A stretch of DNA of 44,513 nt from Escherichia phage Gluttony. The stretch lies in sequence record NC_031113.1. One strand, given 5' to 3'. Made by a program: the position numbers and the translations under genes. The notes below the pieces were generated by a model that worked only from the letters and a program-made list of their open reading frames with translations, searched no databases and was not told the origin of the DNA. Within the stretch, counting starts at the first letter, position 1. The number at the start of each line of letters is the position of its first letter. Positions 1 through 44,513 of the stretch are shown here, piece after piece.

Positions 1-127
1 ATGCCGCTGGTGGCCTTAACCTCGTAGGTCCATACGGCATCGATCACATGCTCGCGGAAGTCGGGACCGGACTTCACCTTGCGCTTGCCTACCATGATAA
101 TATCGCCGCGGTCTATGGTATTGGCAC
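1..127. repeat. 127-bp terminal direct repeat, identical to 44387..44513; likely assembly overlap of a circular or permuted genome
   Basis: First 127 nt of the window match the last 127 nt base for base; a minus-strand ORF reads through this junction. Confidence 0.9.
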
Positions 128-344
128 TAAACAAGCCGGTACGCATGAGCAAACCTTGCGGTATACAACTGCGCCCGCCTGCTTGCCCTTCAAGGTACAT
201 GCCCGCAAACATTTCGCCCAGCACACCGACCAGTCGGCTTTGCTTGCACGCGTCGGACTTTAAGCGCCATTGGTCAAACTCGATGCTTGCTACCATTGCC
301 GCCAGGTGGAATTGTTTACCGGATATTTCATATTCGCCGTACAT
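1..344 (-). CDS. 5' part of a wrap-around gene (start codon at 344) encoding a putative PD-(D/E)XK-like nuclease-fold protein, about 191 aa in full
   Basis: Hand translation of the minus strand is open from ATG at 344 down to position 1 and in frame with the ORF at 44155..44481 through the repeat; GAGGA RBS before the ATG at 344; in-frame stop at 381-383; D...EVK-type motif (GDIIMVGKRK...VIDAVWTYEVKATSG). Confidence 0.5.
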   Translation of the reverse strand, partial: MYGEYEISGKQFHLAAMVASIEFDQWRLKSDACKQSRLVGVLGEMFAGMYLEGQAGGRSCIPQGLLMRTGLFSANTIDRGDIIMVGKRKVKSGPDFREHVIDAVWTYEVKATSG

Positions 345-386
345 CGTGTGGTCCTCATTGATGCGGGCCGAAGCCCGCGATTAGAA

Positions 387-965
387 TTATTTCAGTGCGC
401 TACGTACCAGTGTTTTTTCCATGTTGCGGAAGTCTTCCGGCGTCATGAGGATTTTGGACCCATCCTCTCCAGTGAGCACGACCATAGGCTGGACGTCCTG
501 GGCCGCTACGCCGAAATTGGCGGCTTTGACAGTCTTCCCGAACGAGGCCACCACACCTTCGGCAACGCGCATCGCACTGTTATACGCATTAATCTCGCCA
601 TCTAGTCGTACGGACAGGTCTTTGAGGCTGTCGAATTGTGCTGCCGTTGTGTCGATCTGGATCTCGTCATGCACGGTCATGTACGACTCGCCCAGCAGTG
701 CGGCATATGCTACCAGGTCAACGATGTTATCGTCCTGGTGCTTACGGTGCTGGCGTACCAGCTTCAGGCAGATCAAGAAGGTCCAGGCTTCTTGCTCGGT
801 CAGGTCGCGACCGGTAAGCGCGTTAAACACGTCAGCGATCTGTTTAGCGCTACGCTCTTCTTTCGCGTTGTCATAGCCGTTTTCTTTTCCGCGCTGTTCC
901 ATAGTGGTGGCGGCGTTTTTGCAGTATTCGTATGCTTTCATTATGTGGTCCTTTTTAGGGGCCAT
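387..965 (-). CDS. Hypothetical protein, 192 aa (alternative start at 941)
   Basis: ORF track; helical, charged sequence; function not recognised. Confidence 0.5.
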   Translation of the reverse strand: MAPKKDHIMKAYEYCKNAATTMEQRGKENGYDNAKEERSAKQIADVFNALTGRDLTEQEAWTFLICLKLVRQHRKHQDDNIVDLVAYAALLGESYMTVHDEIQIDTTAAQFDSLKDLSVRLDGEINAYNSAMRVAEGVVASFGKTVKAANFGVAAQDVQPMVVLTGEDGSKILMTPEDFRNMEKTLVRSALK

Positions 966-1470
966 ATCGCCCCGACGAGTTAACTATAGTGCAACCAATA
1001 GGTTGGTTGCAAGTAAATTTTGCAACGTTTATCGCATAAATTTTCGAGACCAGATCGCTGCACGCCCGTCGAATGGCCGCGATGTTCTTCGGGCAGTCTT
1101 CAATGATGACCAGTTCCGATACGTCCGCATAGCAGACCATTTTGAACACGGCGCACGCTTTAAACTCTGGCGGCGGGGTATCGTCCAGCATGTGGCGCAT
1201 AAACAACCGGCCTACGGGGAATACTTCCAATTGCTCGACGGTAGTCTCCCAGCATTCTCGCTGCCGGTTGGTCAGATACGCGATCTCGAAGCCTTGCTCT
1301 TTGTACATGGTCAGCAGCGGCAGCATATCCATGTTCAGATCTTCGCGTATATGCGCTTTGTGCCACTTCGCCCAAAAGGTGGATTTTGTTTTTATACCTG
1401 GCACCAGGTCGGCACGCGCATCGCTTGAACCATTAATAACGCCATCAAGATCACAAATCAGTAGTTTCAT
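955..1470 (-). CDS. HAD-superfamily phosphatase-like protein
   Basis: N-terminal LICDLDGVI matches the HAD motif I (DxDG) pattern. Confidence 0.5.
   Translation of the reverse strand: MKLLICDLDGVINGSSDARADLVPGIKTKSTFWAKWHKAHIREDLNMDMLPLLTMYKEQGFEIAYLTNRQRECWETTVEQLEVFPVGRLFMRHMLDDTPPPEFKACAVFKMVCYADVSELVIIEDCPKNIAAIRRACSDLVSKIYAINVAKFTCNQPIGCTIVNSSGRYGP
984..1012 (-). promoter_or_regulatory. Sigma70-like promoter (TTGCAA-17-TATAGT) inside the palindrome TTGCAACCAATAGGTTGGTTGCAA
   Basis: -35/-10 spacing read on the minus strand; contains the recurring ATTGGTTGCA motif; lies inside the 3' end of the upstream ORF. Confidence 0.4.
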
Positions 1471-1691
1471 TTTAATTCCTCAACCAAATCCGAACGAACA
1501 ACTCTGGCGGAAAACTTGTTACACACAAGATGCCAATTTGCGGTTATGACAAGCCAGCCGGTAAGGTCCAGACCCAGGATATATTCTGGACGTGACACTC
1601 GCTTCACACGATCGCGGCGCGGATCGATGTTATAGTCTCTTTGCATTCGGTCTACTACCGCAGGGTCGCGGTCAACGATTAAGATATTCAA
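1467..1691 (-). CDS. Hypothetical protein, 74 aa
   Basis: ORF track; overlaps neighbours in operon fashion. Confidence 0.35.
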   Translation of the reverse strand: MNILIVDRDPAVVDRMQRDYNIDPRRDRVKRVSRPEYILGLDLTGWLVITANWHLVCNKFSARVVRSDLVEELK

Positions 1692-2157
1692 GGAGTTCTC
1701 CTTCGCTCATTATTTCAATTTGTGCGCTGCCGGTTGGTGGCGCTTCGTCAAATATTATCAATTGCTGGCACTTGTTATTGCTCGGCCCGACTTCACCGGT
1801 GACAGCGTGTATAAATCTCACCCGCCAGTCCAGAAGAATTATCATATTGGCAGTCTTCCGGGCCAACTTCGCCCACTTCGTCGACGTGTCCTGATTCAGT
1901 AGCATGACAGTCCGGCGACCGTGCGCTGCGCATTCCACCCACGGCAGCGGGTCGGAATACGGCGGATTGCACCACTTCCACCCTTTCAAATCAGCCCAGT
2001 CCACATCAAGCGCGCTATGTTCTGCTGTGAAGTAACGCGGTAGCAGGTGGTTGGCATCGCTTGCCGCCATATCGTAACGGAATCGGTATTTCCGACGAAG
2101 CGGTTTGAATAAAGCTGGCGGCGTGCGCCAGCTATCTTTTTGCTCACTCTTCTGCAT
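1672..2157 (-). CDS. Phage DNA N6-adenine methyltransferase (Dam-like)
   Basis: WRTPPALF and CNPPY motifs typical of the phage Dam family. Confidence 0.8.
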   Translation of the reverse strand: MQKSEQKDSWRTPPALFKPLRRKYRFRYDMAASDANHLLPRYFTAEHSALDVDWADLKGWKWCNPPYSDPLPWVECAAHGRRTVMLLNQDTSTKWAKLARKTANMIILLDWRVRFIHAVTGEVGPSNNKCQQLIIFDEAPPTGSAQIEIMSEGELLEYLNR

Positions 2158-2608
2158 GACCTGGATCTATCGCGTATAAAGGGACTTTATTGCCGGTTTT
2201 CATAACGCGCTGGACGCGCTTTGACTCCTCGGCGCTCATTGGGCGCATATCAGTGCTATAACCACCGTTTGATGTGTGCCGCCACGCTATCAGCACCAGA
2301 TCTTTCCGGTCGATCTTAGACTGGCGGCCCTTCGGTCGCACGTACGCCTCGGCCCGTTTGCAATGCTCGCGCAGACCTTCGGCAGTGATGCGGTTTAGCG
2401 CGACGGTGGTTGTGTACCCGGTGCGCTGCATAATACCCATCAACCCATACAGCAGTTCGAAGCGCTCCTCTAACTCCTTGCGCATCTTTTCCTCGCCTTC
2501 ATAGCTCGCCAGGTAGGTATCCGCCAGCGCGTTCGCCCGTTCGACCTGTTCGCGGGCTTCGAGGCATTGCGCGGCCCAGTAATTTTTCTCTTCTTGTAAA
2601 ATTTTCAT
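2144..2608 (-). CDS. Hypothetical protein, 154 aa
   Basis: ORF track; coiled-coil-like N-terminus. Confidence 0.45.
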   Translation of the reverse strand: MKILQEEKNYWAAQCLEAREQVERANALADTYLASYEGEEKMRKELEERFELLYGLMGIMQRTGYTTTVALNRITAEGLREHCKRAEAYVRPKGRQSKIDRKDLVLIAWRHTSNGGYSTDMRPMSAEESKRVQRVMKTGNKVPLYAIDPGHAEE

Positions 2609-2655
2609 CGTGTTGTCTCCAGGTATTAAAAAGGGCGTCCAAACCGGACACCCTC

Positions 2656-2684
2656 AATATAAGGCAACCAATATGACTATGCAA
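2656..2684 (-). promoter_or_regulatory. Sigma70-like promoter (TTGCAT-17-TATATT) built from two ATTGGTTGC motif copies
   Basis: Read on the minus strand upstream of the ATG at 2608. Confidence 0.4.
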
Positions 2685-2689
2685 CCAAT

Positions 2690-3013
2690 TTACGCATAAA
2701 AGTTCGGGTCGCGTGCAACGTCTACCAGGTAAAGGTTGCTTATGCGGTTGCCGTAGTGCCCTGGAGTGCGCTGGCGGCACACAACGGCGAAGCCTGGAGG
2801 GATTGTATTGCCCGTCTCAATAATCCACGCCACGCGTGCGCCAGACAGCGTCTTGCCGTTGTATTCGATACGTGTTCCGCCATCGGCGGTATTGAGGTTG
2901 CCAATTTTGCAGCCGGTGGACTTCAGACGAATGACGCCGGTTTTGCTGTCGTAGGAGAATAACTGGTTAGTCATTGCAACCGAAAAATCGATGGCTTCGA
3001 ATGAAGTATTCAT
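2690..3013 (-). CDS. HNH_3-like (NUMOD-type) endonuclease-like protein, possibly degenerate
   Basis: RVAWIIETGNTIPPGF...NRISNLYLV resembles the HRLVW...IDH...NLRLV pattern, but the catalytic D-H is not evident. Confidence 0.45.
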   Translation of the reverse strand: MNTSFEAIDFSVAMTNQLFSYDSKTGVIRLKSTGCKIGNLNTADGGTRIEYNGKTLSGARVAWIIETGNTIPPGFAVVCRQRTPGHYGNRISNLYLVDVARDPNFYA

Positions 3014-3705
3014 TTTAAATTTTCCTCGTTAACCGCTATCGCGAAGCCGCGCGGAGTGAGCGACCGGATTAATTTTGTGCGGGCTGATTTGCCTCCGAGG
3101 CGACTATACTGCTTCGAGTACCCTTTTTCAACGAAAACAGGTCTCTTCTCTGGCATACGGAAGCCGTTGCCGGTCCATAAGCAGGTCAGCTTCGGATATG
3201 AATCGCGGGCGTTGATGTATTCCGGGAAGAGCGGGTGTACGTCATCCTCCGGCAGATATCCCCCATACTCCCACGGGTCGAATGAGTGATCCGGCTTGCG
3301 CCACTGGGTGGAAAGCACACTGCGCGGATTCTCAATCATATACGGCACTTCGAAGAAGTCACCCAGGTACGCGGCGATCTTCGCGGTGCGCACCGCCTTA
3401 AGCTGGAAGGCCGGGTCGCGGGCGCGTTTGCGCGGGAAAGCTGGCGCACCGCTCACCGCCAGATCAGTACACGGCGGGAATGCGTAGATGATATCTGGCG
3501 TACCGAAATCGCCATTCATCGCGCGGTCTACAAAGTCCAGATCAATAAACTCATTGCGATATCGGATCCCGCGACCATAAATCCGGTAGTCCAGGTACGA
3601 CCCGTGATCGGCTTCGGAGTAGTTAAAACAGTAGCACTTATGCCCCATCTCGGCAGCACGCTCAATCATCAAGCCGCTGCCGTCAAACAATGACCAGATT
3701 ATCAT
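3010..3705 (-). CDS. DNA cytosine-C5 methyltransferase-like protein, short at 231 aa
   Basis: Motif I-like LFDGSGL, PC motif FPPCTDLAVSGA, ENV-like IENP. Confidence 0.5.
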   Translation of the reverse strand: MIIWSLFDGSGLMIERAAEMGHKCYCFNYSEADHGSYLDYRIYGRGIRYRNEFIDLDFVDRAMNGDFGTPDIIYAFPPCTDLAVSGAPAFPRKRARDPAFQLKAVRTAKIAAYLGDFFEVPYMIENPRSVLSTQWRKPDHSFDPWEYGGYLPEDDVHPLFPEYINARDSYPKLTCLWTGNGFRMPEKRPVFVEKGYSKQYSRLGGKSARTKLIRSLTPRGFAIAVNEENLK

Positions 3706-5126
3706 TTGCGCGCCTTCTTAGCTTTCATGTATTCCATCAAGTCGTCCTGAATATCCCGCTTACTGTCGCGACGCTCGGCGACCAGTTCGTCCAGTGTTCC
3801 GCGCGCCTGGATAATGTAGACGAATACCGGTCGAGGGTGCCCGGCCTGCATCTGGCGAACCGGCCCGATACGCTCAACGATCTGCGAAAAGTGCTCAAAG
3901 TTCCAGGTATCGGAGAAGATTGCCAGGTGATGACCGCCGTCCTGCAAGTTAAGGCCGTGGCCTGCCGATGCCGGGTGTGCAAACATGATGGGGATCTCAC
4001 CCCTGTTCCACGCTTCCATATCCTTATTGCCCTGCTTACCTTTACCCAACGCAACGCCGTGCGGAAATTTCTTCTTAAGTCGTGCCAGGTCATGCTTATA
4101 CTGATACGCAACGAGCAACGGCGCGCCGTTCAACTCCTCTACGATACTCTCCAGCGCGTCCAGCTTCGCGTCGTGAATCTTCACCCACTCGTCGGTCCGT
4201 TCGCCGTCTTCGTCCACCTTATACACGGCCCCGGATGCAAGCTGAAGGCACTTAATTGTCTTCGACGCCGCGTTCGCCGCTTCCACTGTTCCGCTTTCCA
4301 GTTCTGCAAATAGCTCGCTTTCAAACTGGTCATAAATCTTACGCGCTTTCTTCGGCAGGTCCACAACAACCGGCGTATAGATTGGCTTGTCGCACCCGAA
4401 GTATTCCGCCGCGTCAACGGTGAGGGATACATCTGACAGACGTTGTTGTATCTCTTTCTCGGAGTTCTTTAGCGGAGCGTGCTGCATAGTGAAGCTGCTA
4501 GGCTTAACAGGCTTGCTAATGAACCAGCGGTCGGTAAATGCCTTATAGCTACTGCCGAGGCGTTCGCCACCGTCGACAAACCACGTCTGACCCCATAAGT
4601 CTTTTAGCCCGTTTGGCGCTGGTGTGCCGGTAAGGTTAATCCAGCGCTTGACGTGTTTATGTGCAATCGCTGCCAGTGCGCGGGCGCGCTTGCTCCCCTG
4701 CTTGCTACGATAGCCTTTCAGCTTAGTCGATTCATCGGCAACAACGACCGTAAAGGGCCACGCATCGCCGTAATAGTCGACCAGCCACTCAACCACATCA
4801 TAGTTAACACAAACCACGTTAGCGTCGCTCTCCAGCGCTGCAATGCGGTCCTTCTCTGGACCAGTGCCGTCTACTACCAGCAGGGCTGGGAAGCGCCATT
4901 TCTCCTGCTCCGGGGGCCAGGTGCCGGACGCAACGCGCAGCGGGGCCAGCACCAGTACGCGGTCCTCCTGGTTGGACAGGATACCCGTCTGGAACATTTT
5001 ATTCAGCGCCCACATTGTCGCGCCGGTTTTACCCGATCCCATTGTCGCCCATATATTACATCGCTTATGCTTGAGGATGAACGCGGTTATCAACTTCTGA
5101 TATTCGCGGCGTCGGAATCGTGCCAT
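3702..5126 (-). CDS. Superfamily II (SNF2/DEAD-like) DNA helicase
   Basis: Walker A MGSGKTG, DEST box, helicase C motif HPASAGHGLNLQ; start placed at MARF (5126) after a GGCGGA RBS. Confidence 0.8.
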   Translation of the reverse strand: MARFRRREYQKLITAFILKHKRCNIWATMGSGKTGATMWALNKMFQTGILSNQEDRVLVLAPLRVASGTWPPEQEKWRFPALLVVDGTGPEKDRIAALESDANVVCVNYDVVEWLVDYYGDAWPFTVVVADESTKLKGYRSKQGSKRARALAAIAHKHVKRWINLTGTPAPNGLKDLWGQTWFVDGGERLGSSYKAFTDRWFISKPVKPSSFTMQHAPLKNSEKEIQQRLSDVSLTVDAAEYFGCDKPIYTPVVVDLPKKARKIYDQFESELFAELESGTVEAANAASKTIKCLQLASGAVYKVDEDGERTDEWVKIHDAKLDALESIVEELNGAPLLVAYQYKHDLARLKKKFPHGVALGKGKQGNKDMEAWNRGEIPIMFAHPASAGHGLNLQDGGHHLAIFSDTWNFEHFSQIVERIGPVRQMQAGHPRPVFVYIIQARGTLDELVAERRDSKRDIQDDLMEYMKAKKARK

Positions 5127-5130
5127 ATCT

Positions 5131-5364
5131 TTATTCCGCCTTTTTCCAGACTTCAGTTTCACTGTTCCAGTTCCTTTTTGTGGCGTCGTAGTTGGTGGCG
5201 TGTCCGACGTGGACACCGGTAGCCCGGAAGCTCTTAAATTTTTGCCAGCACACCGTCAACGGCAGCGGATCATTCATGCCTGCGATAAACCATACGCGAT
5301 CGCCCGGTTTACATTCGCCCAGCTTGGTGAGTCGGTAATGTTCTTTCATCGTCATGTCTCCCAA
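5131..5364 (-). CDS. Hypothetical protein, 77 aa
   Basis: ORF track. Confidence 0.4.
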   Translation of the reverse strand: MGDMTMKEHYRLTKLGECKPGDRVWFIAGMNDPLPLTVCWQKFKSFRATGVHVGHATNYDATKRNWNSETEVWKKAE

Positions 5365-5392
5365 AAATGGCGGGACAAGCCCGCCGTATTAA

Positions 5393-5566
5393 TTATTTTT
5401 GTTCTGCACGGTAGCGGCGCTGCCGTTCGCGCTCTTTTTTATTGCGGCACGATTTGCACTCTGCCCGATACCCGTCTGGACTTCGCGCAGTCTTACCGGT
5501 GTATTTGTGGAACTGGGATAGCGGCTTTACACAGCCGCAATTACTACAACGTTTTTCTTCAATCAT
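5393..5566 (-). CDS. Small zinc-ribbon protein
   Basis: CSNCGC...CKSC cysteine pairs; start at MIEEK with a GAGGA RBS. Confidence 0.45.
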   Translation of the reverse strand: MIEEKRCSNCGCVKPLSQFHKYTGKTARSPDGYRAECKSCRNKKERERQRRYRAEQK

Positions 5567-5606
5567 CTCTAAAATCCTCGATATGGCTAACCGGCACACT
5601 ATACCG

Positions 5607-5885
5607 CTATGCGACCAATTCAGCAACCAATAAATCACAGTCGGCTATGCTGTCGATAACGCGAACGTCCGCACCGCGGCGGGCCATTCGCTCATGTTCT
5701 CGTACCTGGTGCGGCTTAGGTTTACCGCCTGGGCGCTTCACTTCGACGAAAACTATCTTGCCGTTGATGATGATAATCAGATCGGGCGCGCCTGCGCGCC
5801 CCTCCCACGCCACTTTACGGCAGAATCCGCCAACCTCTTTAACCCGTTTCATAAGGTGACGCTGCACCTTGCCTTCTGGTGTCAT
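5607..5885 (-). CDS. VRR-NUC domain nuclease
   Basis: VFVEVKRPGGKPKPHQ...E motif; ATG overlaps the upstream stop (ATGA). Confidence 0.7.
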   Translation of the reverse strand: MTPEGKVQRHLMKRVKEVGGFCRKVAWEGRAGAPDLIIIINGKIVFVEVKRPGGKPKPHQVREHERMARRGADVRVIDSIADCDLLVAELVA

Positions 5886-6514
5886 TGTCGGCTTTTCCTT
5901 ACGGCAGCGATGGCAGGTCCGATAAACTTCTTCATTTCGTCCGGGGTAAACCGATCCCCGCGGGCTATGTTGCACTCTACGCAGCACGGCACGCAGTTAT
6001 CTTTCGTATGGCCTACTGCGTTGTCGAGTCGGTCCGCGCCATTGTCGCCGGTGAATCCGCAGTATGCGCACGGCTGAGAAGTAAGGCGCAGCACGTCCTC
6101 TGTAGTAAGGTCGGTGTTTAGCCCCTTCCTTTCGTCTGCCTTACGGTACTGAAAGAGTTTATAGTAAGCGCGGATCTCTGGTGTCCGGTGGTTGTACTCG
6201 CGGCGTGACTTATTAGCGCACGATCGGCATTCTTTACGAATATGTGACCCGTTTGCTTGGCTTCCTGGCCGGAAGTTTTCCGGCGTGAGCGGCTTGCGCT
6301 CACCGCACGTACGACATGTTACGATCTCCCCGGTGTACTCTCGCCATACTTCTCTCGGCGGCGCGCCTCTTTCCTTATCCCGTCTCTCTTTCTTATATGC
6401 CGCCATGCATTTGGCGCACCACGACTGGCCCTTGTTGAAAGCGGACTCATCTTTACCCGTATTACAACGCCCACAATGTTTCATATACACCTCGAAAAAG
6501 AAAACGCCAGACAA
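5882..6514 (-). CDS. HNH endonuclease with N-terminal zinc-finger repeats
   Basis: CAYCGF...GH...N..CCVECN HNH-type motif. Confidence 0.7.
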   Translation of the reverse strand: MSGVFFFEVYMKHCGRCNTGKDESAFNKGQSWCAKCMAAYKKERRDKERGAPPREVWREYTGEIVTCRTCGERKPLTPENFRPGSQANGSHIRKECRSCANKSRREYNHRTPEIRAYYKLFQYRKADERKGLNTDLTTEDVLRLTSQPCAYCGFTGDNGADRLDNAVGHTKDNCVPCCVECNIARGDRFTPDEMKKFIGPAIAAVRKSRQ

Positions 6515-6550
6515 TAATGCCCAACGTTTCCGCTAAAAGCAACATTTCCG

Positions 6551-8842
6551 CTACTTGCGGTAGCGATACATGCAATCGCCCTCTGCGGCAAGTGGGAAGC
6601 CTTTCGCCCAAATAGGCAGGTCGCACATCAGCGCGCAAAGCTCCTCTGTCGTGTAGTCGTCGGTGTCCGGCACTTCTGTGATCAATTCATCATGCACCGA
6701 TAGAACGATTTCATAGCCCGCAGCTTCAACGCCAGGCATTGACCAGGCGAGAATATCACGGCACAACGCCTGTACTATGTTCTCCGTCAGTTTGCCGCCG
6801 TAGGTATACTGGAAGCCCCACTGGCGCGTCGTCTGATTCTCGCCCTGATATTTAATGCGGGTGCTGGTGCGTTTCTTGCCGGTATCTTCGTCGATCTCGG
6901 TCGTCACTGACAGCGCAATGCCTGGATAACTCATAATACGCCCCGACGGCAACTCAATTTTCAACCACCACCCCGCGGCGTTCGGGTCGTCGCGTTCCTC
7001 GTCGAAGGTTGGGTCATGCTTCGCCTTCGTGCGGACTATCTTGAGCGCTTTCTTACCATCCGGGCGAACGTTCGCGCCAGCCCAGTACGCTTTGCCAGGA
7101 TTGCGGATTGCACACAACACCGCGTCCTCAAGCTCGGCCCAAAAGGCTACCGTCTTCGGGTGAGCCTCGCGCCACATGCGTTTAATCGCATCACACGTAA
7201 GCCATACGTTTTTCGGCAGTATGTAAGTCGGGCGCTCGTCCTTCTTGCCAGGCTTTGGCGGTCGCTTCGCTTCGTTAATGCGGGCGTACTCATAACCCCG
7301 TTTAGCCGCTGCCCAAATGTGATCGGGGAATGTGCCCTTCATGACGTCCGCCATCGCGTAAAGGTCGAGGCCCAGGTTTTTAGCGAACTGCAAGAACGCC
7401 GCGACGCCGCCACCATAGCCCAGCCCCAATTCGCACGCCTTACCGATCTGGCGTAAGTCCTTGCGGTTAGCTTTAATGTAGTCCGGGTCCAGGCCGAACA
7501 TCTTACCGGCAGTCTCACAATAGATATCGCGACCGGCCTTAAACACCATTAGCGCGGTTTTCTCGCCTGCGATCCAGGCAAGTCCACGCCCTTCCACGTT
7601 GGAGTAGTCCGCTACGACAAACTTCTTGCCCTTAGCCGGGATAATGCACCCGCGAACGGTCGAGGCTGTTAGCTTAGATATGTCATACGCCCAGTGCGCG
7701 GTCCCGCGTAACAGGGAATTGATGCCGTTGGTGAGCATGTGCGACCGGACCCAAAAAGCAACGTCGCTCTCGCCTTCGCGGCGCTTAATCTTCCCTTCGT
7801 GATCGTCGCTATACTCGCCGCGTGCCAGGTTTTGAGGCTGGAAGCCTTTACCCGCCCAGCGCAGCGTGCGCTTTGCACCACCATACTGAAGACACCCACG
7901 GCGGCGACCATCTGCGGATAAGCCGTTAACTAGCGGATTGTACTTAGTCGATGCCGTTGATGACGCTCCGAGGCGCATTTCTATAAGCGCTTTGCCTTCG
8001 TCGGGGAAGTCCGGGTCTTCAAGCAGGTCGTTAAGTGTGGATTTCTGCGCGTTGTGGATCGTGAACGCCGGGGCGATATCACGTAGGATTGGCAGGAAGT
8101 CATTGCCGGTCAGCTTACCGCCAAATCGCTCCCAGGCTTCCTCTTTCAATTCTTCCTTATGCGCCTGTACCGCTTTGATCGCAGCGCGCGCCAGGTCAAC
8201 GTCCACGTAGAAGCCGCGGTCGTTAATCAATTGGTCGATAAGCAGGATTTCGTCTTCCTTCGGCGTATTACCCCAGTCCGGTATGCGCCAATAGACTTCC
8301 CTCATCGCGATGATATCCAGCGCGGCATAGCGCAGGAATTTAGCCCACTCCTCGGGGTGCGTCTTGCGCGTGTAGCGGCGGATTTTGTAGGTCTTAGGGG
8401 TAGGCTTACAGAATCGTTTAATCAGCGCCTTGCCTGCCTTATCCTTCGCGTGCTCTGCGTCAACGCCCAGCACCTGACACTGCATATCGAGGCTACCCGG
8501 CAGCGCGTGCCGAAAGGCCATAATCATGGTATCTTCGATCTGGCTTACCGGCAGATCTATACCCCACTTCTCGCGAATAACAAGGCGGTCAAACAGGAGG
8601 CCGTTAGCCATCACTATTTTTGCTTTCTTGCGGGATACACGGCGGAGTGCCTTGCGCAGTTCACGCGGCATTGTTGGGGATTCAGTGGCATCCCATGTCT
8701 GCACGCGGCCTTCGTCGATGGCGTAGGTGCAAATCATAATCTCGGTGGTTTGGTGCTCTGCGTAGGCGTACGCCCCTACTTTCTTCAGGTCCACCCCGCT
8801 AAATGTCTCGGTGTCGAGAAACAGACGTTCGAAGTCTTTCAT
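6551..8842 (-). CDS. Family A DNA polymerase with 3'-5' exonuclease domain
   Basis: Exo I LDTETFS; motif A DYSNVEGR; motif B RKDLRQIGKACELGLGYGGG; motif C VHDE. Confidence 0.9.
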   Translation of the reverse strand: MKDFERLFLDTETFSGVDLKKVGAYAYAEHQTTEIMICTYAIDEGRVQTWDATESPTMPRELRKALRRVSRKKAKIVMANGLLFDRLVIREKWGIDLPVSQIEDTMIMAFRHALPGSLDMQCQVLGVDAEHAKDKAGKALIKRFCKPTPKTYKIRRYTRKTHPEEWAKFLRYAALDIIAMREVYWRIPDWGNTPKEDEILLIDQLINDRGFYVDVDLARAAIKAVQAHKEELKEEAWERFGGKLTGNDFLPILRDIAPAFTIHNAQKSTLNDLLEDPDFPDEGKALIEMRLGASSTASTKYNPLVNGLSADGRRRGCLQYGGAKRTLRWAGKGFQPQNLARGEYSDDHEGKIKRREGESDVAFWVRSHMLTNGINSLLRGTAHWAYDISKLTASTVRGCIIPAKGKKFVVADYSNVEGRGLAWIAGEKTALMVFKAGRDIYCETAGKMFGLDPDYIKANRKDLRQIGKACELGLGYGGGVAAFLQFAKNLGLDLYAMADVMKGTFPDHIWAAAKRGYEYARINEAKRPPKPGKKDERPTYILPKNVWLTCDAIKRMWREAHPKTVAFWAELEDAVLCAIRNPGKAYWAGANVRPDGKKALKIVRTKAKHDPTFDEERDDPNAAGWWLKIELPSGRIMSYPGIALSVTTEIDEDTGKKRTSTRIKYQGENQTTRQWGFQYTYGGKLTENIVQALCRDILAWSMPGVEAAGYEIVLSVHDELITEVPDTDDYTTEELCALMCDLPIWAKGFPLAAEGDCMYRYRK

Positions 8843-9009
8843 TGCTTTATCCTCACTACGGCGTCAGCGCTGCCGATCATGGAGAAGATGCCGTCTGACA
8901 GGGCAATCTCTTCGCCGTTGTTGCGAATCTCGGCAACTGTGAAATATTCCCCCAGTAGCTTAGACCATACTTTCATTCCGACTTTTACTTCGCTGGCTTT
9001 AATCCGCAT
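8840..9009 (-). CDS. Small hypothetical protein, 56 aa
   Basis: Hand-translated ORF (MRIKASEVKVGMKVW...) with an AGGA RBS; its stop overlaps the polymerase start. Confidence 0.3.
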
Positions 9010-9020
9010 TTTTCATTGTC

Positions 9021-9049
9021 CTATTAAAAAGCCCGCATTAAGCGGGCTT
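9021..9049 (-). terminator. Rho-independent terminator after the SSB-like gene
   Basis: 8-bp GC stem AAGCCCGC/GCGGGCTT followed by a T-run on the minus strand. Confidence 0.6.
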
Positions 9050-9067
9050 GAATAGTGGGCTTTGCCC

Positions 9068-9841: not shown

Positions 9842-9937
9842 TTTCCAATTCCTCATTTCACATGTATCGGGGTTATTAGAAGCCACCCCGTCCGGCTTGG
9901 TTGCTAATGTACTTGGTTGCGTTTCCGCGGTCAAGTG

Positions 9938-12024: not shown

Positions 12025-12035
12025 TGTCTCGTCCT

Positions 12036-12065: not shown

Positions 12066-12072
12066 GATAATA

Positions 12073-13321: not shown

Positions 13322-15586
13322 ATGAGCTTAATTAAATTCGCTGTAACAAGACCCGCTAAAAAAGGCGAAAAAGCCAGGGCGGAAAACTTCCAGATGACGA
13401 CCGATGAATTTTTCGAATTTATCAAAGATGCGAAAGAGATATCGTCGGTGCATATCAACAAGACGGAAGATAAAGCCGAGTATGCGCGCCGCAAGCGTAA
13501 GGCCGATGGCATCGTAGCGTATACCAGTGACGGCTTACGCCGCAAGACCAGTGCGGTGGACCGCTCGATCCTGTTCTTCGATATTGACCGTACCGACACC
13601 CGCACCCTACGCCGCTGCCGTAAGGCTTTCATCGACGCGGGGCTGGAGCACGTATTTCACACCACAACCGGCGACCGCCACCCGCTGAAAGGCGGCACGC
13701 GTTGCGCTCGTTTCCTGGTGCTCACCGACAAGCCTGTACCGGCTGAAGACCTGGGCCGCGTCCAGTACGCACTATTACACCAACTGGGCCTGTCAGATGT
13801 GGACTTCGATGATTGTACGAAAGACACAAACCGCCTGATGTACCTGCCACACCAGCAGTCTGTTATTAAGTGCCACTACGGCAAGCGTGCCCGCGTCCGT
13901 CGTCTGCTTCGCCTGGCGGATAAGTTGGGCGTGGAGAAGGAGGAAGTACGCCGCGAGCTTACCCAGGGCGACGACGCAGTGGCAGACGGCATTCTGGACT
14001 GGTGCTTCCAGGCAGGATTCGAGGAGTTATCTTCCGGTCGCGGTTATGAAGTGCCGTGCCCGAACGAACATCTGCACAGCGGCGAAGGGTCGACGGCTAT
14101 CATGGTCAAGGATGGCGAGATCCGTTTCAAGTGTATGCACACCGGCAACGAGTGTTGCTCGGAACTGAACAGACACCAGCACCTGGCGCTACGTCTTATC
14201 GGGATCCCGGACCACCTGAACGTCGAGCCGCACAACATGTCACGTAAGCAAATCGCCGCCATCCTTCCGGGACTGGACGATGAGGAAGTGGAATCGTGCT
14301 ATGAACATATCGTTGATGCGGTCGGAGACGGCGACGAGTACGGCGTGTGTACTGATGCAGACCTGGACAACGAGCCGGTCGCACTGTTCAGTAAGCACGA
14401 CCCGATCATCGAAGGCCTGGTCAACTTCAAATCGACCTGGTATCTCGCCGGTGAGTCGAACATTGGCAAGTCGTTCTACGTGCTGGGCCAGATGGCGTCA
14501 GTATCTGCCGGTATTCCGTTCGGCGGTGCGAAGGTCGTCCAGTCTCATTGCTTCTATTTCGATGCGGAAGGTGGTGAGGCCTCCAACCAGCGTAAAGAAG
14601 CACTGCAGATCAAATATGAGCACGACCTGGACAAGCTGCACATTATCGATCTGCAATCACGCGGCTGGGATATCACCAGCAAATCCGGCTTGCGTGAAGT
14701 TATCAGCTTCATCAACCGCACCGCTAACGGCGAGCCGGTTGGCCTGGTGGCGTTCGACTCACTCAACCAGACTGTTGCGCTGCGGTCCGCCGATGCAAAA
14801 CCGTTCGACGAGAATAACGCCAGCGATATGGGTGAAGTGGTCAAAGCGCTGAAGGCCATTGCGGAAAATACAGGCGGCAGTGCGGGCGTCATCCACCACC
14901 CGGCGAAGGGTGCAAACGGCAGCAGATCTCCCCGTGGGTCCGGCGCGCTGCATGGCGCTGTCGATTCTGCGTTCTTCCTGGAACAGCCGGACGACAACCA
15001 GCCAGGTCAACTCAACCTGTATCACGAAAAATCCCGTAACGGCATCAAGCAAGCGCCGCGCGGCTTCGTCCTGCTCAAGTGCAAGGTTAAGGTGGATCTC
15101 CGCAAGTCCGAGGCGTTCGAAGCCCACCAGTCCACCAGCACCGGGCCGGACTTCGGTGACGTCGTTGCCGGTTGGGACGTCAAGCCGATTGCCTCCACGC
15201 CACGCGACGAGACTCTTTACCTCGTACCGGTCGCCCTGGCACCGTTCGCCATTGAGCAGGCAAAGGCCGCTGGCAAGGCCGCAGTTAAGGAAGAGAACGC
15301 CGCAGGACCGCGCAACGAAAAAGAGAAAGTGCTTTATGCAGCGCTGGAAAAACTGATGGAAGATAACCCGGACCATACCGGATTCAGCAAATCGGCAATT
15401 GTCCGCCAGGCTGGGCTTGCGAAAGGTGGCACATCGACGAAGGCAATTGACGATATGGTCGAGCGCGGCGTGCTCGGTTTTTATACCGATCCGCACACCG
15501 GGGCCATCTATGGGTCGTCGAATATCGTCATCAAAACGAAGATACCCATCACGCTTTCGGCGACCGATGACGACTTAAAAGATTAA
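13322..15586 (+). CDS. Primase-polymerase (AEP-like) fused to a RecA/DnaB-like ATPase; replication initiator candidate
   Basis: FFDIDRTD acidic motif, Cys/His zinc cluster, Walker A GESNIGKS, Walker B FYFDAEGG. Confidence 0.7.
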   Translation: MSLIKFAVTRPAKKGEKARAENFQMTTDEFFEFIKDAKEISSVHINKTEDKAEYARRKRKADGIVAYTSDGLRRKTSAVDRSILFFDIDRTDTRTLRRCRKAFIDAGLEHVFHTTTGDRHPLKGGTRCARFLVLTDKPVPAEDLGRVQYALLHQLGLSDVDFDDCTKDTNRLMYLPHQQSVIKCHYGKRARVRRLLRLADKLGVEKEEVRRELTQGDDAVADGILDWCFQAGFEELSSGRGYEVPCPNEHLHSGEGSTAIMVKDGEIRFKCMHTGNECCSELNRHQHLALRLIGIPDHLNVEPHNMSRKQIAAILPGLDDEEVESCYEHIVDAVGDGDEYGVCTDADLDNEPVALFSKHDPIIEGLVNFKSTWYLAGESNIGKSFYVLGQMASVSAGIPFGGAKVVQSHCFYFDAEGGEASNQRKEALQIKYEHDLDKLHIIDLQSRGWDITSKSGLREVISFINRTANGEPVGLVAFDSLNQTVALRSADAKPFDENNASDMGEVVKALKAIAENTGGSAGVIHHPAKGANGSRSPRGSGALHGAVDSAFFLEQPDDNQPGQLNLYHEKSRNGIKQAPRGFVLLKCKVKVDLRKSEAFEAHQSTSTGPDFGDVVAGWDVKPIASTPRDETLYLVPVALAPFAIEQAKAAGKAAVKEENAAGPRNEKEKVLYAALEKLMEDNPDHTGFSKSAIVRQAGLAKGGTSTKAIDDMVERGVLGFYTDPHTGAIYGSSNIVIKTKIPITLSATDDDLKD

Positions 15587-17865: not shown

Positions 17866-18156
17866 ATGGATAAGCTAAACGAGTGGTTATTCGCCCTTGC
17901 GTGTCTTGCTGGTGGCTTCGTAGGCGCACGCATTCATGGCGAGGCAACGAAAGGGCCGCTAAACTTCGTGTTATATATCGTAGTTGGCTTCCTGTGTGCC
18001 ATCTTTGGTGCGCCAGCTATCGCCGAGTGGGCTGGCTTATCTGGCGAGCGCACTGTCGCCGGTTTGGGCTTCGTAACTGCAATCTTCTGGATGCCAATCG
18101 CCGACCGGGTCAGGGGGACTATTGCGTCGTTCCGACTTCCGGGGGGTGCAAAATGA
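17866..18156 (+). CDS. Holin
   Basis: 96 aa with three hydrophobic segments, directly upstream of the endolysin. Confidence 0.6.
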   Translation: MDKLNEWLFALACLAGGFVGARIHGEATKGPLNFVLYIVVGFLCAIFGAPAIAEWAGLSGERTVAGLGFVTAIFWMPIADRVRGTIASFRLPGGAK

Positions 18157-18398: not shown

Positions 18399-18876
18399 CA
18401 ACGGTCTACGATTTACGGCAGCATGGGAGACGTTCAGTCCAGTGCCGTATTTCGCGACTAAGAAAGAGCAGGCACGCGGCCTGTACACCTGGGGCTATGG
18501 GCATACTGGCACAAACCCGCCGCGGAGCATTACCCGCGCGGAAGCGCTTGAACTACTCAAGCGCGATGTGGCGTATGCCGAAAACTGGGTGAACAAGTAC
18601 GCACACCCTAGTATCAATCAGGCGCAATTCGACGCGCTGGTGGACCTGGTTATCAATGCCGGTCCTGGTCCGATCATGCCGGACGACGTCGCCGGAGACT
18701 TCGACGATGCGATCCGCCTGGGTGACTGGGCAAAGGTCCGTGCTACGCTGCCACAATTCCGCAAGCAAGGCGGGGCAGTGCTCAAGGGGCTTGTCCGTCG
18801 TGCAATCGGCAGGCAGGCACTATTTGATGGTAAGCAGTGGGATGTTGCCGAGAAAATCGGGCGAAACGCCGCATAA
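18385..18876 (+). CDS. Endolysin, phage lysozyme (GH24-like) family
   Basis: YTWGYGHTG and QFDALVDLVINAG...GLVRRAIGRQALF signature. Confidence 0.75.
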   Translation: MRFSDNGLRFTAAWETFSPVPYFATKKEQARGLYTWGYGHTGTNPPRSITRAEALELLKRDVAYAENWVNKYAHPSINQAQFDALVDLVINAGPGPIMPDDVAGDFDDAIRLGDWAKVRATLPQFRKQGGAVLKGLVRRAIGRQALFDGKQWDVAEKIGRNAA

Positions 18877-20421: not shown

Positions 20422-20973
20422 ATGGCAGAAATTAAAGTTAAAGGTCGTCGCGCTAAACTGGACGGACGAGTCGCAGTAACCCCGCGCCGTAAACCAGGCG
20501 AGCAAACAGAGCATACCAATCTCGGACCTGAGATCGAATATGGCAAGCGTCGTAAAGGCGGCAAATGCGGACGCCCTACTGACTACAGATCCGTTTACTG
20601 CGACCAGCTTCGCCGCTATTTTGCCGACGCCGACGCCTGGCAGGTCAACTACTCCGATAAAGGCGCTGCGCAAGTAATTCCCCGCAACAAAATGCCAACC
20701 TTCGGTCGATTTGCCGCGGAAATCGGCGTTGGCGTCGCTTGCCTGTATCGCTGGGCGCGTGCACATGAGGAGTTCGCCGAGGCTATGGCGGACGCTATGG
20801 AGCTACAGAAAACTTTCCTGATGGAAGCTGGCGGCGTTACCATCGCGGCGGGCTTCGCCACGTTCCTGCTTAAAGCCAACCACGGCGTCCGCGATGATGT
20901 TCCACTGGATGACGACGAAGATGATAACGGCGACGTCGTTGTCGAACCTACCGGCAAAGGCCAGGGTGAGTAA
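20422..20973 (+). CDS. Terminase small subunit (Terminase_2-like)
   Basis: GGKCGRPTDY and YCDQ motif; acidic C-terminus; directly upstream of the large subunit; start at MAEIK (track ORF begins at 20401). Confidence 0.7.
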   Translation: MAEIKVKGRRAKLDGRVAVTPRRKPGEQTEHTNLGPEIEYGKRRKGGKCGRPTDYRSVYCDQLRRYFADADAWQVNYSDKGAAQVIPRNKMPTFGRFAAEIGVGVACLYRWARAHEEFAEAMADAMELQKTFLMEAGGVTIAAGFATFLLKANHGVRDDVPLDDDEDDNGDVVVEPTGKGQGE

Positions 20974-27140: not shown

Positions 27141-28241
27141 ATGTCTTTAACAGTGTTCCAGCGTAAACTCGTTACCGCGGTTACGCAAATGATCCCCGAC
27201 AACCTGAACGTTTTCAACGCCGCCGCCAATGGCGCTGTTGTTCTCGGTACTGGTGAAGTGCTGAAGGATGTTGTTGAGAAAATGTCCGTAGGCTTGATCG
27301 CCAACCTTGTTACCGACCGTAACGCCTACGCCCCTGTCGGCACTCCGGCAACCGCTAAAGTGCTGGCGCGTATGCTGACCAACTCCGTTAACCTTTCCGC
27401 GAAAGTGGGTCCGGTAGCAATCACTAAGGCCATGATGGCTAAAATCGAAACCAACGTTAACAGCGTTGCGGCTGAGATTGCGGCGCAGGCTACTCAAGCG
27501 ATTTTGCTGCATTACCTAAAAGCTGGTATCGGTGCGGGTAAAGCGGCGATCGAAAGCAACGCAGCGGCAAAATACACCCAACCGGCGCGCGTTGACGGCG
27601 TTGGCGGTCGTACCTTCCCGACCCTGGCAGACTTCCCGCTGGCGGCTTCTAAGTTCGGCGATCAGGCGTCTTTGATTAAGTCCTGGTTTATGGACGGCGT
27701 TACCTGGGCAAACTTCATTGCGTACCAGGCACTCCCTTCCGCTGAACAGGTATTCGCAATTGGCGATCTCCAGGTAATGGGTGATGGCCTGGGCCGTCGC
27801 TTCATTATCTCCGATGCCGCTGCCGATGCTATGGGCGCTGGTAACATGCTGGGTCTGGTCCCTGGCGCGGTTGCAGTTACGACCAACGGCCTCGACATGC
27901 TGGCGCAGGAAAAAGGCGGCAACGAGAACATTGAGCGCTGGTGGCAGGGTGAGTTCGACTTCAACGTGGCTGTTAAAGGCTACCGTCTGAAGGCGTCCGC
28001 TCGTACCCCGATCGAAGGTGTACGCTCGTTCAAACTGGACGATATCACCACTTCCGCTAACTGGGAACTGGATCAGGGCCAGGTAGACAACGCACCGGCA
28101 ACCGTGCAGGATGTTGGCGCTGTGGGTGATGGCGATACTAAAGGCCGTCGTAAGACCCAGGCCGCACAGGCAGTGCCTACCCGCCACATCAAGGAAACCG
28201 CTGGCGTACTGGTTACGCTGACGGCGACTACCGCGTCTTAA
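27141..28241 (+). CDS. Major capsid protein
   Basis: 366 aa between the scaffold gene and a strong terminator. Confidence 0.75.
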   Translation: MSLTVFQRKLVTAVTQMIPDNLNVFNAAANGAVVLGTGEVLKDVVEKMSVGLIANLVTDRNAYAPVGTPATAKVLARMLTNSVNLSAKVGPVAITKAMMAKIETNVNSVAAEIAAQATQAILLHYLKAGIGAGKAAIESNAAAKYTQPARVDGVGGRTFPTLADFPLAASKFGDQASLIKSWFMDGVTWANFIAYQALPSAEQVFAIGDLQVMGDGLGRRFIISDAAADAMGAGNMLGLVPGAVAVTTNGLDMLAQEKGGNENIERWWQGEFDFNVAVKGYRLKASARTPIEGVRSFKLDDITTSANWELDQGQVDNAPATVQDVGAVGDGDTKGRRKTQAAQAVPTRHIKETAGVLVTLTATTAS

Positions 28242-42352: not shown

Positions 42353-44131
42353 ATGGCAGCGGGCACACTATCCGTAACGAATAACAGCAAGGCGGTTGTA
42401 GGGGTCGGCACAACGTTTACCTCGTTTAACGCTGGCGACTTCTTAACGCTGGTGGTAGGACAAGTCCCCTACACCGTAGCAATCGCGTCCATTGAAAGCG
42501 AAACCGCGCTTACGCTGGTGTTGCCGTTCGACGGCCCAACGGCAACCGGCCTCGCGTGGGATGGCGTTAAGCGCGATACCATGTCACTGGCGACGATGGG
42601 TGTAACCGTACAGGCACAGAAAGCATTGCGCTTGATGATTGCAGATGAAAACAACTGGCGTGCAATCTTCGGCGACGCTGAAGAAATCACCGTGACGCTG
42701 CCTAACGGGCAGGTAATGCAGGGTATGTCATGGGGCTACCTGTCGCAGTTGATGAAACAGATCGACCCCGTTGAGATGCTAAACCTGCAACAACAAGCCG
42801 CCGCATCGGAAGCAGCCGCGCAAGGATACCGCGACCAGGCCGAAGGCATTAAAACCGAGACGGCAGGCATCCGCGACGACACCAGGTTGATTAATGCTGA
42901 TACGCTGGCGATCCGCAACGACACCGATGCCATCAGGACGAATACCAACCAGATTAAATCAGATACGCAGGCCATTAAGGACCAGACGAACCAGATCAAG
43001 ACGGACACCGGCGTTATTCGCGACGAAGCCAATACCGCGAAGACGGACGCGCAATCCGCCCGCGATGCTGCGCTGGGATACCGGAACGAGGCCGAACAGT
43101 TCAAGAATGAGATCGACCCGTCGAAACTTCTGGCAAAGGCCAACAACCTTAGCGACGTTGCCGACCCCGCGGCAGCGCGCGACCACTTAGGCATCGGGCC
43201 TGACGACACCCTTAACCTTGGTGGCCTGGTAACGTCCGGCAGTATCTCCGCGGGCCGCAACACATGGGATGGGTCTAACTGGGGGAGCCAGGGACTTCTC
43301 GCCTCATTAGTGGTCCTATACCCGGACGGAAGCTCAGCCCCAGGCTTATACGTGCGAAAATCCAACGGCGACAGCGGATATGCGGCGGGATGGTTGTATA
43401 ACGAGAACAGTATCAGTTGGGCTACTAACGCGCGTATTGCGGGCTTTCAGTTCCGGTCCCCTAAAGGCGCGATGGGGTATAACCAGCTATGGTCAGAGGC
43501 TGTGGTGCGTGCGGACGACTTCATGGCACAGAATGGCGCGGAAAACTATAAGTCGTTAATCGCGGGGGCCGCTACAACGCAAGGTCACGGATACTCGGGC
43601 GGTGTCTCGTTCGGGATAATGACAACTGGCATAAACAACTGGCCCCGGGCGCAGATCTCGATCGGCACAGCAGACCGTGACGCCGCTGGGAATATGGCTT
43701 CGCAGATGCACTTCCGCTTTAATGAATATGGGCAGATTTCTTACACAGGGCCACTGGGGACGGGGTCGTTCCAGCAAGTACCTGCGTCGGATCGCAACCT
43801 GAAGCATGACATTGCCGATGACGCAAGCAGCACCGCCTACGACAATATCAAGGCTTTGCGGTTCCGCACGTTCGTATTCAACAACGATGAACAGGAACGG
43901 CAGCGTCGCGGTATTATTGCGCAGGAAGCGGAAGAAATCGACCCGCTGTATGTGAAGCACCGCGTGTATAACAATCACGAATTAAATGGGCCTCTGGTGC
44001 ACCAGCTTGAACTGGATACGACACCGCTGTTACTCGACACTATGCGAGCGTTGCAGGATACGATTAAGCAGGTGGAGGATTTGAAGGCGGAGATCGCAGC
44101 GATGAAGCAGGCGGAAGAGTTGAAGAAATAA
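42353..44131 (+). CDS. Tail fibre with DT-rich repeat shaft and C-terminal intramolecular chaperone (Peptidase_S74-like) domain
   Basis: Start at MAAGTLSV with GAGGA RBS; repeats DT..I..; C-terminal SDRNLKHDIADDASSTAYDNIKALRFRTFVFNN. Confidence 0.75.
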   Translation: MAAGTLSVTNNSKAVVGVGTTFTSFNAGDFLTLVVGQVPYTVAIASIESETALTLVLPFDGPTATGLAWDGVKRDTMSLATMGVTVQAQKALRLMIADENNWRAIFGDAEEITVTLPNGQVMQGMSWGYLSQLMKQIDPVEMLNLQQQAAASEAAAQGYRDQAEGIKTETAGIRDDTRLINADTLAIRNDTDAIRTNTNQIKSDTQAIKDQTNQIKTDTGVIRDEANTAKTDAQSARDAALGYRNEAEQFKNEIDPSKLLAKANNLSDVADPAAARDHLGIGPDDTLNLGGLVTSGSISAGRNTWDGSNWGSQGLLASLVVLYPDGSSAPGLYVRKSNGDSGYAAGWLYNENSISWATNARIAGFQFRSPKGAMGYNQLWSEAVVRADDFMAQNGAENYKSLIAGAATTQGHGYSGGVSFGIMTTGINNWPRAQISIGTADRDAAGNMASQMHFRFNEYGQISYTGPLGTGSFQQVPASDRNLKHDIADDASSTAYDNIKALRFRTFVFNNDEQERQRRGIIAQEAEEIDPLYVKHRVYNNHELNGPLVHQLELDTTPLLLDTMRALQDTIKQVEDLKAEIAAMKQAEELKK

Positions 44132-44157: not shown

Positions 44158-44513
44158 GTTTGAGTTTTCCCAGTCCATTTTGCGCCGCACCAGCGGGCTT
44201 TCGTAATATTCCTTTCCTTCCACTTCCACCAAAGGCCAGTCGTTCACAATCACGTATGGCTCCGCGATATCCTCAATCACGCCGTGCGCGCTTTGCGGCC
44301 CTAACGACACACCAACCAGGATAACACCGGCAACGCGACGGGTCAGATATTCGCGAGCGCAACGTGCCTCAACCAGCCCACGACGGATGCCGCTGGTGGC
44401 CTTAACCTCGTAGGTCCATACGGCATCGATCACATGCTCGCGGAAGTCGGGACCGGACTTCACCTTGCGCTTGCCTACCATGATAATATCGCCGCGGTCT
44501 ATGGTATTGGCAC
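44155..44513 (-). CDS. 3' part of the same wrap-around gene (44387..44513 duplicates 1..127)
   Basis: ORF track 44155..44481; the Met at 44481 has no RBS and the frame stays open upstream in the other repeat copy. Confidence 0.5.
   Translation of the reverse strand, partial: ANTIDRGDIIMVGKRKVKSGPDFREHVIDAVWTYEVKATSGIRRGLVEARCAREYLTRRVAGVILVGVSLGPQSAHGVIEDIAEPYVIVNDWPLVEVEGKEYYESPLVRRKMDWENSN
44387..44513. repeat. Second copy of the 127-bp terminal direct repeat
   Basis: Identical to 1..127. Confidence 0.9.

Follow-up and report, generated by a model that had tools for sequence, protein, structure and literature searches.

The octamer GCTGGTGG occurs several times in the genome of Escherichia phage Gluttony, mostly on one strand, which raises the question of whether these Chi octamers reflect an adaptation of the phage to host RecBCD or only the way its genes are spelled. 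The window analyzed here is the whole 44,513-nt sequence record (NC_031113.1). A sequence-only reading of it had listed four unique plus-strand Chi copies and a single minus-strand copy, set the four against roughly 0.7 expected by chance, and proposed that, with an enteric host, their orientation could modulate RecBCD attack from one genome end. Chi in coliphages, its explanation by codon usage, and the dichotomy of Chi-rich and Chi-free phages are already described.

The genome and its Chi octamers

By megablast, the window belongs to the genus Dhillonvirus and is an HK578/SO-1-type E. coli siphovirus. Its bases 1 to 20,000 are 98% identical to phage Pride, bases 20,000 to 44,386 are 100% identical to phage Lust, and more than 100 further coliphages are ~90% identical to it. 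The name Escherichia phage is carried by 163 of the 191 records that match the window. The relatives are thus overwhelmingly E. coli phages, which bears out the enteric host, and GCTGGTGG is therefore Chi as read by host RecBCD.

Bases 1 to 127 and 44387 to 44513 are 100% identical, and the match ends at exactly 127 nt, base 128 being different. Since, in addition, the gene that crosses the window junction is uninterrupted in Pride, we attribute the end repeat to an assembler (k-mer) overlap on a circular contig and do not regard it as a biological terminal repeat. Features within this duplication are counted twice by any whole-window scan. The unique genome length is 44,386 bp, with a G+C content of 54.4%. 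Gene models were taken over from Pride, and 62 of 62 are intact open reading frames (ORFs) in the window. Coding sequence makes up 93% of the genome, 28.4 kb of it on the plus strand (about two thirds) and 13.0 kb on the minus strand. A leftward replication/recombination module of 13.0 kb runs on the minus strand from 44155 across the junction to 12579, and almost all the rest is rightward, comprising the helicase-primase, small early genes, lysis genes, terminase (20422-22358), head, tail, and fibers.

Seven exact matches to GCTGGTGG are present in the window. Six are unique, with a plus-to-minus split of five to one:

1-127 and 44387-44513: terminal duplication, exact 127-nt repeat, circular contig written linearly
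6..13 (= 44392..44399; one site, in the overlap), plus strand: Chi, antisense within a minus-strand gene (44155 to 344 across the junction, 191 aa, unknown function, phrog_10558), whose sense codons here are GCC-ACC-AGC-GGC (A-T-S-G)
15132..15139, minus strand (the sole minus copy): Chi, antisense in the helicase-primase gene (13322-15586, plus), whose sense codons here are TCC-ACC-AGC-ACC (S-T-S-T)
17908..17915, plus strand: Chi, sense in gene 17866-18156 (homologues in JLBYU60 and GeorgBuechner annotated as holin), codons GCT-GGT-GGC (A-G-G)
18636..18643, plus strand: Chi, sense in the lysin gene (18442-18876), codons GCG-CTG-GTG-GAC (A-L-V-D)
27937..27944, plus strand: Chi, sense in the major capsid gene (27141-28241), codons CGC-TGG-TGG (R-W-W)
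42448..42455, plus strand: Chi, sense in the tail fiber gene (42353-44131), codons ACG-CTG-GTG-GTA (T-L-V-V)

Every coordinate given in the sequence-only reading holds an exact GCTGGTGG, and the pair 6-13/44392-44399 is, as it had stated, one site duplicated, in this case within the 127-nt overlap. Its single minus-strand copy stands as well; its plus-strand count of four does not, because the site at 18636-18643 had been overlooked, and the real ratio is 5:1.

All six unique sites lie within ORFs, four in sense and two in antisense. The sense copies are spelled as CTG-GTG (Leu-Val) twice, as GCT-GGT-GG (Ala-Gly-Gly), and as CGC-TGG-TGG (Arg-Trp-Trp), and both antisense copies lie over ACC-AGC (Thr-Ser). 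These codon strings are common in E. coli-like coding sequence, and at 27937 two tryptophan codons fix 6 of the 8 bases.

To follow the sites through the genus, relatives were taken from 15 IMG/VR contigs rebuilt from three overlapping scans and from 8 GenBank genomes; a search of IMG/VR with the tape-measure protein by itself yielded 13 relatives. The fraction of relatives in which each Chi is intact, and the percentile of its conservation among local octamers, are as follows:

6-13: intact in 9/18 (0.50); percentile 0.64
15132: intact in 16/21 (0.76); percentile 0.74
17908: intact in 3/20 (0.15); percentile 0.25
18636: intact in 16/21 (0.76); percentile 0.80
27937: intact in 20/21 (0.95); percentile 0.96
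42448: intact in 14/20 (0.70); percentile 0.85

The genome-wide mean intact fraction for any octamer in the same relatives is 0.49. At 17908, the relatives that do not have Chi read GCGGGTGG or GCTGGCGG. Among 21 nonredundant Dhillonviruses there was no clear signal of extra conservation of Chi over neighboring octamers. Chi sites thus appear to be gained and lost in the genus like neutral synonymous variation, with no clear purifying selection on the octamer.

Chi number and strand bias against the coding structure

Whether Chi is in excess depends on the null model. Markov models of order 0 to 1 predict 0.7 to 1.0 copies per strand, and dinucleotide shuffles gave a mean of 1.41 for both strands, with none of 100 shuffles reaching 7; against such low-order nulls, the excess over ~0.7 that had been claimed is found. 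It is not found once codon structure or tri- to heptanucleotide composition is modeled and the expectation becomes 3.6 to 5.9. Markov models of order 3 to 6 predict 4.7 to 5.9 copies in total (P for at least 6, 0.34 to 0.54), with 2.8 to 4.3 on the plus strand and 1.6 to 1.9 on the minus strand. Shuffling synonymous codons within each gene, so that every protein and the per-gene codon usage are preserved, gave a total expectation of 3.6 to 3.8 (P for at least 6, 0.14 to 0.16), and a stricter dicodon shuffle, which also preserves all dinucleotide counts, gave 4.8 (P for at least 6, 0.31). The composition-matched shuffled control that the sequence-only reading had proposed therefore goes against it, since codon-level shuffles erase the total excess (P for at least 6, 0.14 to 0.31); its caution over small numbers was justified, with six unique sites. 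Against a mono- or dinucleotide null, this G-rich octamer seems 5- to 7-fold over-represented; under a codon-structured null, the excess disappears. The Chi octamers are real and present at a neutral compositional frequency.

At least six copies are reached by 863 octamer/complement pairs, the top octamer having 31, and the Markov-4 z-score of Chi is 1.07, with 34% of observed octamers scoring as high or higher. Six sites per 44,386 bp correspond to a density of 135 sites/Mbp; a 50-kb sample of K-12 holds 14 sites. PMC12315714 gives 217 sites/Mbp for E. coli, ~536/Mbp for phage LLS (23 Chi in 42.9 kb), and ~527/Mbp for P1 (50 in 94.8 kb), and names Chi as the top octamer in both phages. Gluttony is unlike LLS and P1 in that its Chi density lies under the host level, at about a quarter of P1's, that Chi is not its top octamer, and that there is no Chi excess over trinucleotide- or codon-based expectation (6 versus 3.6 to 5.9).

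Under Markov models, five or more plus-strand Chi sites are not unusual (P = 0.15 to 0.42). In the protein-preserving shuffles, the five plus-strand sites compare with 1.5 expected after synonymous shuffling (P = 0.010) and 2.5 after dicodon shuffling (P = 0.058), and a plus-minus difference of at least 4 has a P value of 0.005 to 0.03. Divided by gene orientation, the sites fall into four classes:

Sense, plus-strand genes: 4 observed, 1.35 to 2.2 expected
Antisense, plus-strand genes: 1 observed, 0.64 to 0.78 expected
Sense, minus-strand genes: 0 observed, 1.46 to 1.61 expected (P for zero, 0.12 to 0.17)
Antisense, minus-strand genes: 1 observed, 0.13 to 0.33 expected

The encoded proteins contain 39 peptide contexts in which Chi could be spelled in sense and 14 in which it could be spelled in antisense. 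Sense contexts are used in 4 of 24 cases in plus-strand genes and in 0 of 15 cases in minus-strand genes, where 1.5 to 1.6 are expected. The strand signal is a mild sense surplus in rightward genes plus a zero against 1.5 expected. The idea that antisense Chi is to be expected more often than sense Chi was ruled out, the minus-strand expectation stemming from sense contexts in minus-strand genes.

The strand bias of an octamer needs to be judged against gene orientation. In the orientation of the window, the 21 nonredundant Dhillonviruses carry 2 to 9 plus-strand Chi (mean 4.9) and 0 to 4 minus-strand Chi (mean 1.6), with Markov-3/4 expectations of 2.4 to 2.5 and 1.8 to 1.9, respectively; these genomes share ancestry and are not independent samples. 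Counted as distinct positions in the genus, there are 16 plus-strand and 7 minus-strand sites, which fits the null split (binomial P = 0.08 to 0.17). A homologous replication module, with a DNA polymerase 61 to 66% identical, is found in the Guernseyvirinae (Jerseyvirus SS3e, SE2, and wksl3; Kagunavirus), whose hosts are Salmonella and E. coli. In the leftward replication block of 48 Guernseyvirinae loci, 42 Chi are sense and 16 antisense; whole-locus Chi totals of 57 and 45 become 41 and 3 in the flanks when the replication block is subtracted. In both modules, Guernseyvirinae Chi goes with the way the genes are transcribed instead of keeping to a single strand of the genome, a pattern that matches the prediction of a coding-strand effect and that a packaging-directed orientation would not predict.

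The Chi strand bias in Gluttony is mostly such a coding-strand effect, perhaps with a weak residual orientation bias beyond gene orientation (P = 0.01 to 0.06). We consider it likely that the six Chi sites are incidental, arising from host-like codon usage in a densely coding E. coli phage, with no RecBCD-directed adaptation. They are spelled by ordinary codon strings inside ORFs; the plus-strand majority would arise because Chi favors the sense strand and the plus strand holds about two thirds of the coding sequence; and the zero sense Chi in the minus-strand replication module would be sampling noise. Should RecBCD reach the phage DNA, every site would behave as any Chi. In E. coli itself, Chi frequency is credited to codon usage and its skew to gene orientation (Colbert 1998; Subramaniam & Smith, both as cited in bioRxiv 10.1101/2021.07.08.451572). 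Gluttony resembles the E. coli chromosome in having the same octamer, nearly all copies in ORFs, CTG often in frame, and a bias that tracks ORF orientation; it differs in density (135 versus 217/Mbp) and in being without replichore structure.

Any residual bias could also come from weak selection for the lambda-active orientation, such that RecBCD at a free end reads the plus-strand Chi. We regard this as unlikely. The 5:1 split, with the P values of 0.01 to 0.06 for at least five plus-strand sites in protein-preserving shuffles, argues for it, as do the 21 relatives, in which the plus-strand mean is ~2 times and the minus-strand mean ~0.85 times the Markov expectation. However, neither the total of Chi sites nor their density reaches the host level, and Chi is far from the top octamers. 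The genus-wide count of distinct positions (16:7) is compatible with the null split, only 3 of 20 relatives have Chi at 17908, conservation of the sites does not clearly exceed that of their neighbors, and the leftward module of the Guernseyvirinae has its Chi mainly in sense.

Packaging, RecBCD geometry, and recombination genes

The proposal that Chi orientation modulates RecBCD attack from one genome end presupposes a fixed end. For Dhillonviruses, PhageTerm analyses report headful packaging that starts at a preferred pac site and yields terminally redundant DNA (PMC9022532; PMC13348001), and their genomes assemble as circles. There is no single genome end, because headful pac packaging gives permuted, redundant ends, and the ends of the window are an assembly overlap; in this form the proposal fails.

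Chi is active only for RecBCD arriving from its 3' side (Faulds 1979 and Taylor 1985, both as cited in PMC12315714 and bioRxiv 10.1101/2021.07.08.451572), so the five plus-strand Chi are legible solely to RecBCD travelling toward lower coordinates. The orientation rule used here has its source in lambda chi+ mutants (red gam), in which packaging polarity sets the relevant Chi orientation (Kobayashi 1982, Faulds 1979, and Taylor 1985, as cited in PMC12315714 and bioRxiv 10.1101/2021.07.08.451572). Lambda has fixed cos ends, whereas Dhillonvirus ends are permuted and redundant through headful pac packaging. For Gluttony, rightward packaging from pac, as in lambda, can be inferred, and distances were counted from the small terminase gene:

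20422..20973, plus strand: small terminase gene (terS), with weak similarity to P22 gp3/Sf6 small terminases, under Pfam cut-offs

From the start of terS, the plus-strand Chi lie at 7.5, 22.0, 24.0, 41.9, and 42.6 kb and the minus-strand Chi at 39.1 kb. Two of the five plus-strand sites, 17908 and 18636, are thereby located 1.8 to 2.5 kb upstream of terS, although numbers are small. If terminase cuts at pac and packaging proceeds rightward, RecBCD entering the free end would read the five plus-strand Chi. On the view that the lambda-active orientation is under selection, RecBCD would enter at the end left free once a concatemer is cut at pac near terS, move leftward, and meet 18636 and 17908 within ~2.5 kb, and Chi would switch it from degradation to RecA loading, so that replicating phage DNA is spared or recombined. 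The two plus-strand Chi just upstream of terS point this way, and the same geometry is known for lambda chi+ mutants and for LLS, in which 20 of 23 Chi, grouped at the right end, have the active orientation (PMC12315714). Yet the view depends on a packaging direction that we infer. The 5:1 arrangement would guard against RecBCD entry from one side only.

Injected, terminally redundant linear DNA could instead be circularized by host RecA and RecBCD with Chi as hotspots, as in P1, a use that the headful packaging and terminal redundancy of the genus (PMC9022532; PMC13348001) would permit. P1 depends on RecBCD and has many Chi, with an active site for entry from either end (bioRxiv 10.1101/2021.07.08.451572). 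Such a use requires correctly oriented Chi from both ends. RecBCD going left to right along a first-headful chromosome has one such site in Gluttony, the single minus-strand Chi at 15132, at a distance of 39 kb from the pac-proximal (left) end. Since RecBCD from that side meets only 15132, the sites cannot protect or circularize injected DNA as P1's end-clustered sites on two strands may. With a density a quarter of P1's, and with a phage exonuclease and annealing protein that could circularize the DNA instead, we find a P1-type use very improbable.

The phage's own recombination-type genes bear on any need for RecBCD and Chi. Matches to Pfam and PHROGs identify a VRR-NUC nuclease and an SNF2 helicase in addition to the following:

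9068-9841, minus strand: Enc34/gp2.5-like ssDNA-binding/annealing protein
10164-11594, minus strand: DUF2800 PD-(D/E)XK exonuclease

The window and Pride are ~100% identical nearly throughout, but identity falls to 87 to 91% over the genes for the SSB-like protein and the DUF2800 exonuclease (8839-11594), which looks like a recombination patch within the recombination genes themselves. Related GAC/GAA-rich repeat runs, whose plus strand reads CGTCTTCGTCGTCATC, are present in minus-strand genes at 9097-9263 and 12114-12475 and would encode acidic tails of the SSB-like protein and of an uncharacterized protein (12073-12579).

No homologues of Gam, Abc2, or gp5.9 were found when 32 early, replication, and packaging proteins were searched against Pfam and PHROGs, which is in keeping with selection for the lambda-active orientation; a novel RecBCD inhibitor may be among the many small uncharacterized proteins of the phage. 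JLBYU60_49 has been annotated as "DNA recombination nuclease inhibitor gamma protein," but its orthologue in the window (12982-13311, plus strand) matches HTH_23, Sigma70_r4_2, and phrog_9366, and the public Gam annotation in JLBYU60 is probably wrong. P2 Old restricts Dhillonviruses, and the known triggers of Old are RecBCD inhibitors (bioRxiv 10.64898/2026.07.10.737580). This sensitivity hints that RecBCD is perturbed during Dhillonvirus infection and, like the phage's own recombination-type genes, speaks against selection for Chi in the lambda-active orientation.

Lambdoid phages with their own Rec module tend to have few Chi and those that do not have one tend to have many (PMC12315714); LLS-class phages are without a Rec module, whereas Gluttony has exonuclease and annealing-type genes. 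The presence of Rec-type genes and a density lower than that of E. coli might suggest that Chi has been counter-selected, as in lambda and P22, and that the six sites are a depleted remnant. This is hard to credit, as the six observed equal or exceed every composition-aware expectation (3.6 to 5.9; observed/expected of at least 1). According to PMC12315714, 172 of 314 Enterobacteriales lambdoid phages carry 0 to 1 Chi, and Chi is mostly absent from phages that combine a Rec module with a RecBCD inhibitor. Gluttony is like lambda, P22, 21, 434, and Sf6 in its phage-encoded recombination-type genes and unlike them (0 to 1 Chi) in carrying six Chi without a recognizable Gam, Abc2, or gp5.9. The genus thus stands between known extremes, the Chi-rich, RecBCD-reliant phages and the Chi-free, RecBCD-inhibiting ones.

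ACGGCARC and other repeated motifs

The commonest octamer of the genome is ACGGCAGC, with 25 plus-strand copies; ACGGCAAC comes second with 18. Pooled as ACGGCARC (= ACGGCA[AG]C), they occur 43 times on the plus strand and 13 times on the minus strand, genome-wide, at ~1 per 0.8 kb:

1941, 5259, 5901, 6946, 10135, 13144, 15930, plus strand: ACGGCARC, among 43 copies
20292, 24179, 29543, 33852, 36540, 40467, 43897, plus strand: ACGGCARC, among 43 copies
640, 2747, 3676, 5419, 10702, 13614, 42520, minus strand: ACGGCARC, among 13 copies

Compared with protein-preserving shuffles, ACGGCARC is enriched 3- to 8-fold, and no other word in the genome is so strongly over-represented:

Sense, plus-strand genes: 32 observed, 6.2 to 9.7 expected (SD 2.2)
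Antisense, plus-strand genes: 7 observed, 1.5 to 3.0 expected
Sense, minus-strand genes: 5 observed, 1.0 to 1.2 expected
Antisense, minus-strand genes: 7 observed, 0.9 to 1.9 expected

Copies fall in each of the three frames as well as at five intergenic or gene-edge places. All 8 positions are specific, since no single-substitution variant has more than 9 plus-strand copies, against 43 for the motif itself. In the 21 relatives, 79.7% of the sites are retained, versus 51.1% of control octamers (0 of 10,000 permutations). Dhillonvirus assemblies of three-quarters completeness or more all carry 25 to 43 plus-strand and 8 to 18 minus-strand copies. ACGGCAAC is also the top octamer in the Guernseyvirinae (Jerseyvirus, Kagunavirus), with a median of 0.8 sites/kb, 2.9 times the Markov-4 expectation, and it is rare in polymerase relatives more distant than these. 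A 50-kb sample of E. coli contains 8 copies of ACGGCARC, which is ~8 times rarer than in the phage. No description of ACGGCARC was found in searchable papers, full-text matches to ACGGCAGC and ACGGCAAC being primer sequences only.

ACGGCARC is very likely a real selected DNA signal, and since the same tests that were applied to Chi pick it up, they are able to detect a selected motif in the Gluttony genome. It might act as a polar or a binding signal specific to the phage. With host Chi as a bystander here, one could imagine that ACGGCARC is a Chi-like "self" signal through which an enzyme of the phage spares or processes phage DNA, but we think such a role rather improbable; speculatively, its reader could be the DUF2800 nuclease with the SNF2 helicase, or else the helicase-primase. 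ACGGCARC, as a strongly selected and lineage-specific octamer, and the conserved CGGGACA arrays described below would be better targets for follow-up than Chi.

Two intergenic repeats of ~195 nt, 83% identical to each other, are found after the helicase-primase gene and before the tape-measure gene, and each has six closely spaced CGGGACA followed by a long GC-rich hairpin:

15713-15907: ~195-nt repeat, after the helicase-primase gene
31934-32128: ~195-nt repeat, before the tape-measure gene
5370 (plus), 31812 (plus), 31838 (minus): extra CGGGACA copies

Nearly all Dhillonviruses examined have CGGGACA arrays at the two positions, with 4 to 6 copies at the first and 4 to 8 at the second. The RNA fold z-score of the repeats is -2.2; Rfam at its gathering threshold gave no match anywhere in the window, and simple promoter and terminator scans around the two repeats gave nothing convincing. 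The repeats look like protein-binding arrays, regulatory or origin-like.

A further motif, GCAACCAAT(A), and its complement have ~19 copies (Markov-4 z ~7), many apparently between genes and often paired:

991/1003, 2664/2681, 9897/9913, 12784, 15653/15688/15969, 16059/16090, 26213/26227, 42328: GCAACCAAT(A)

GCAACCAAT(A) is a candidate phage promoter or operator element.
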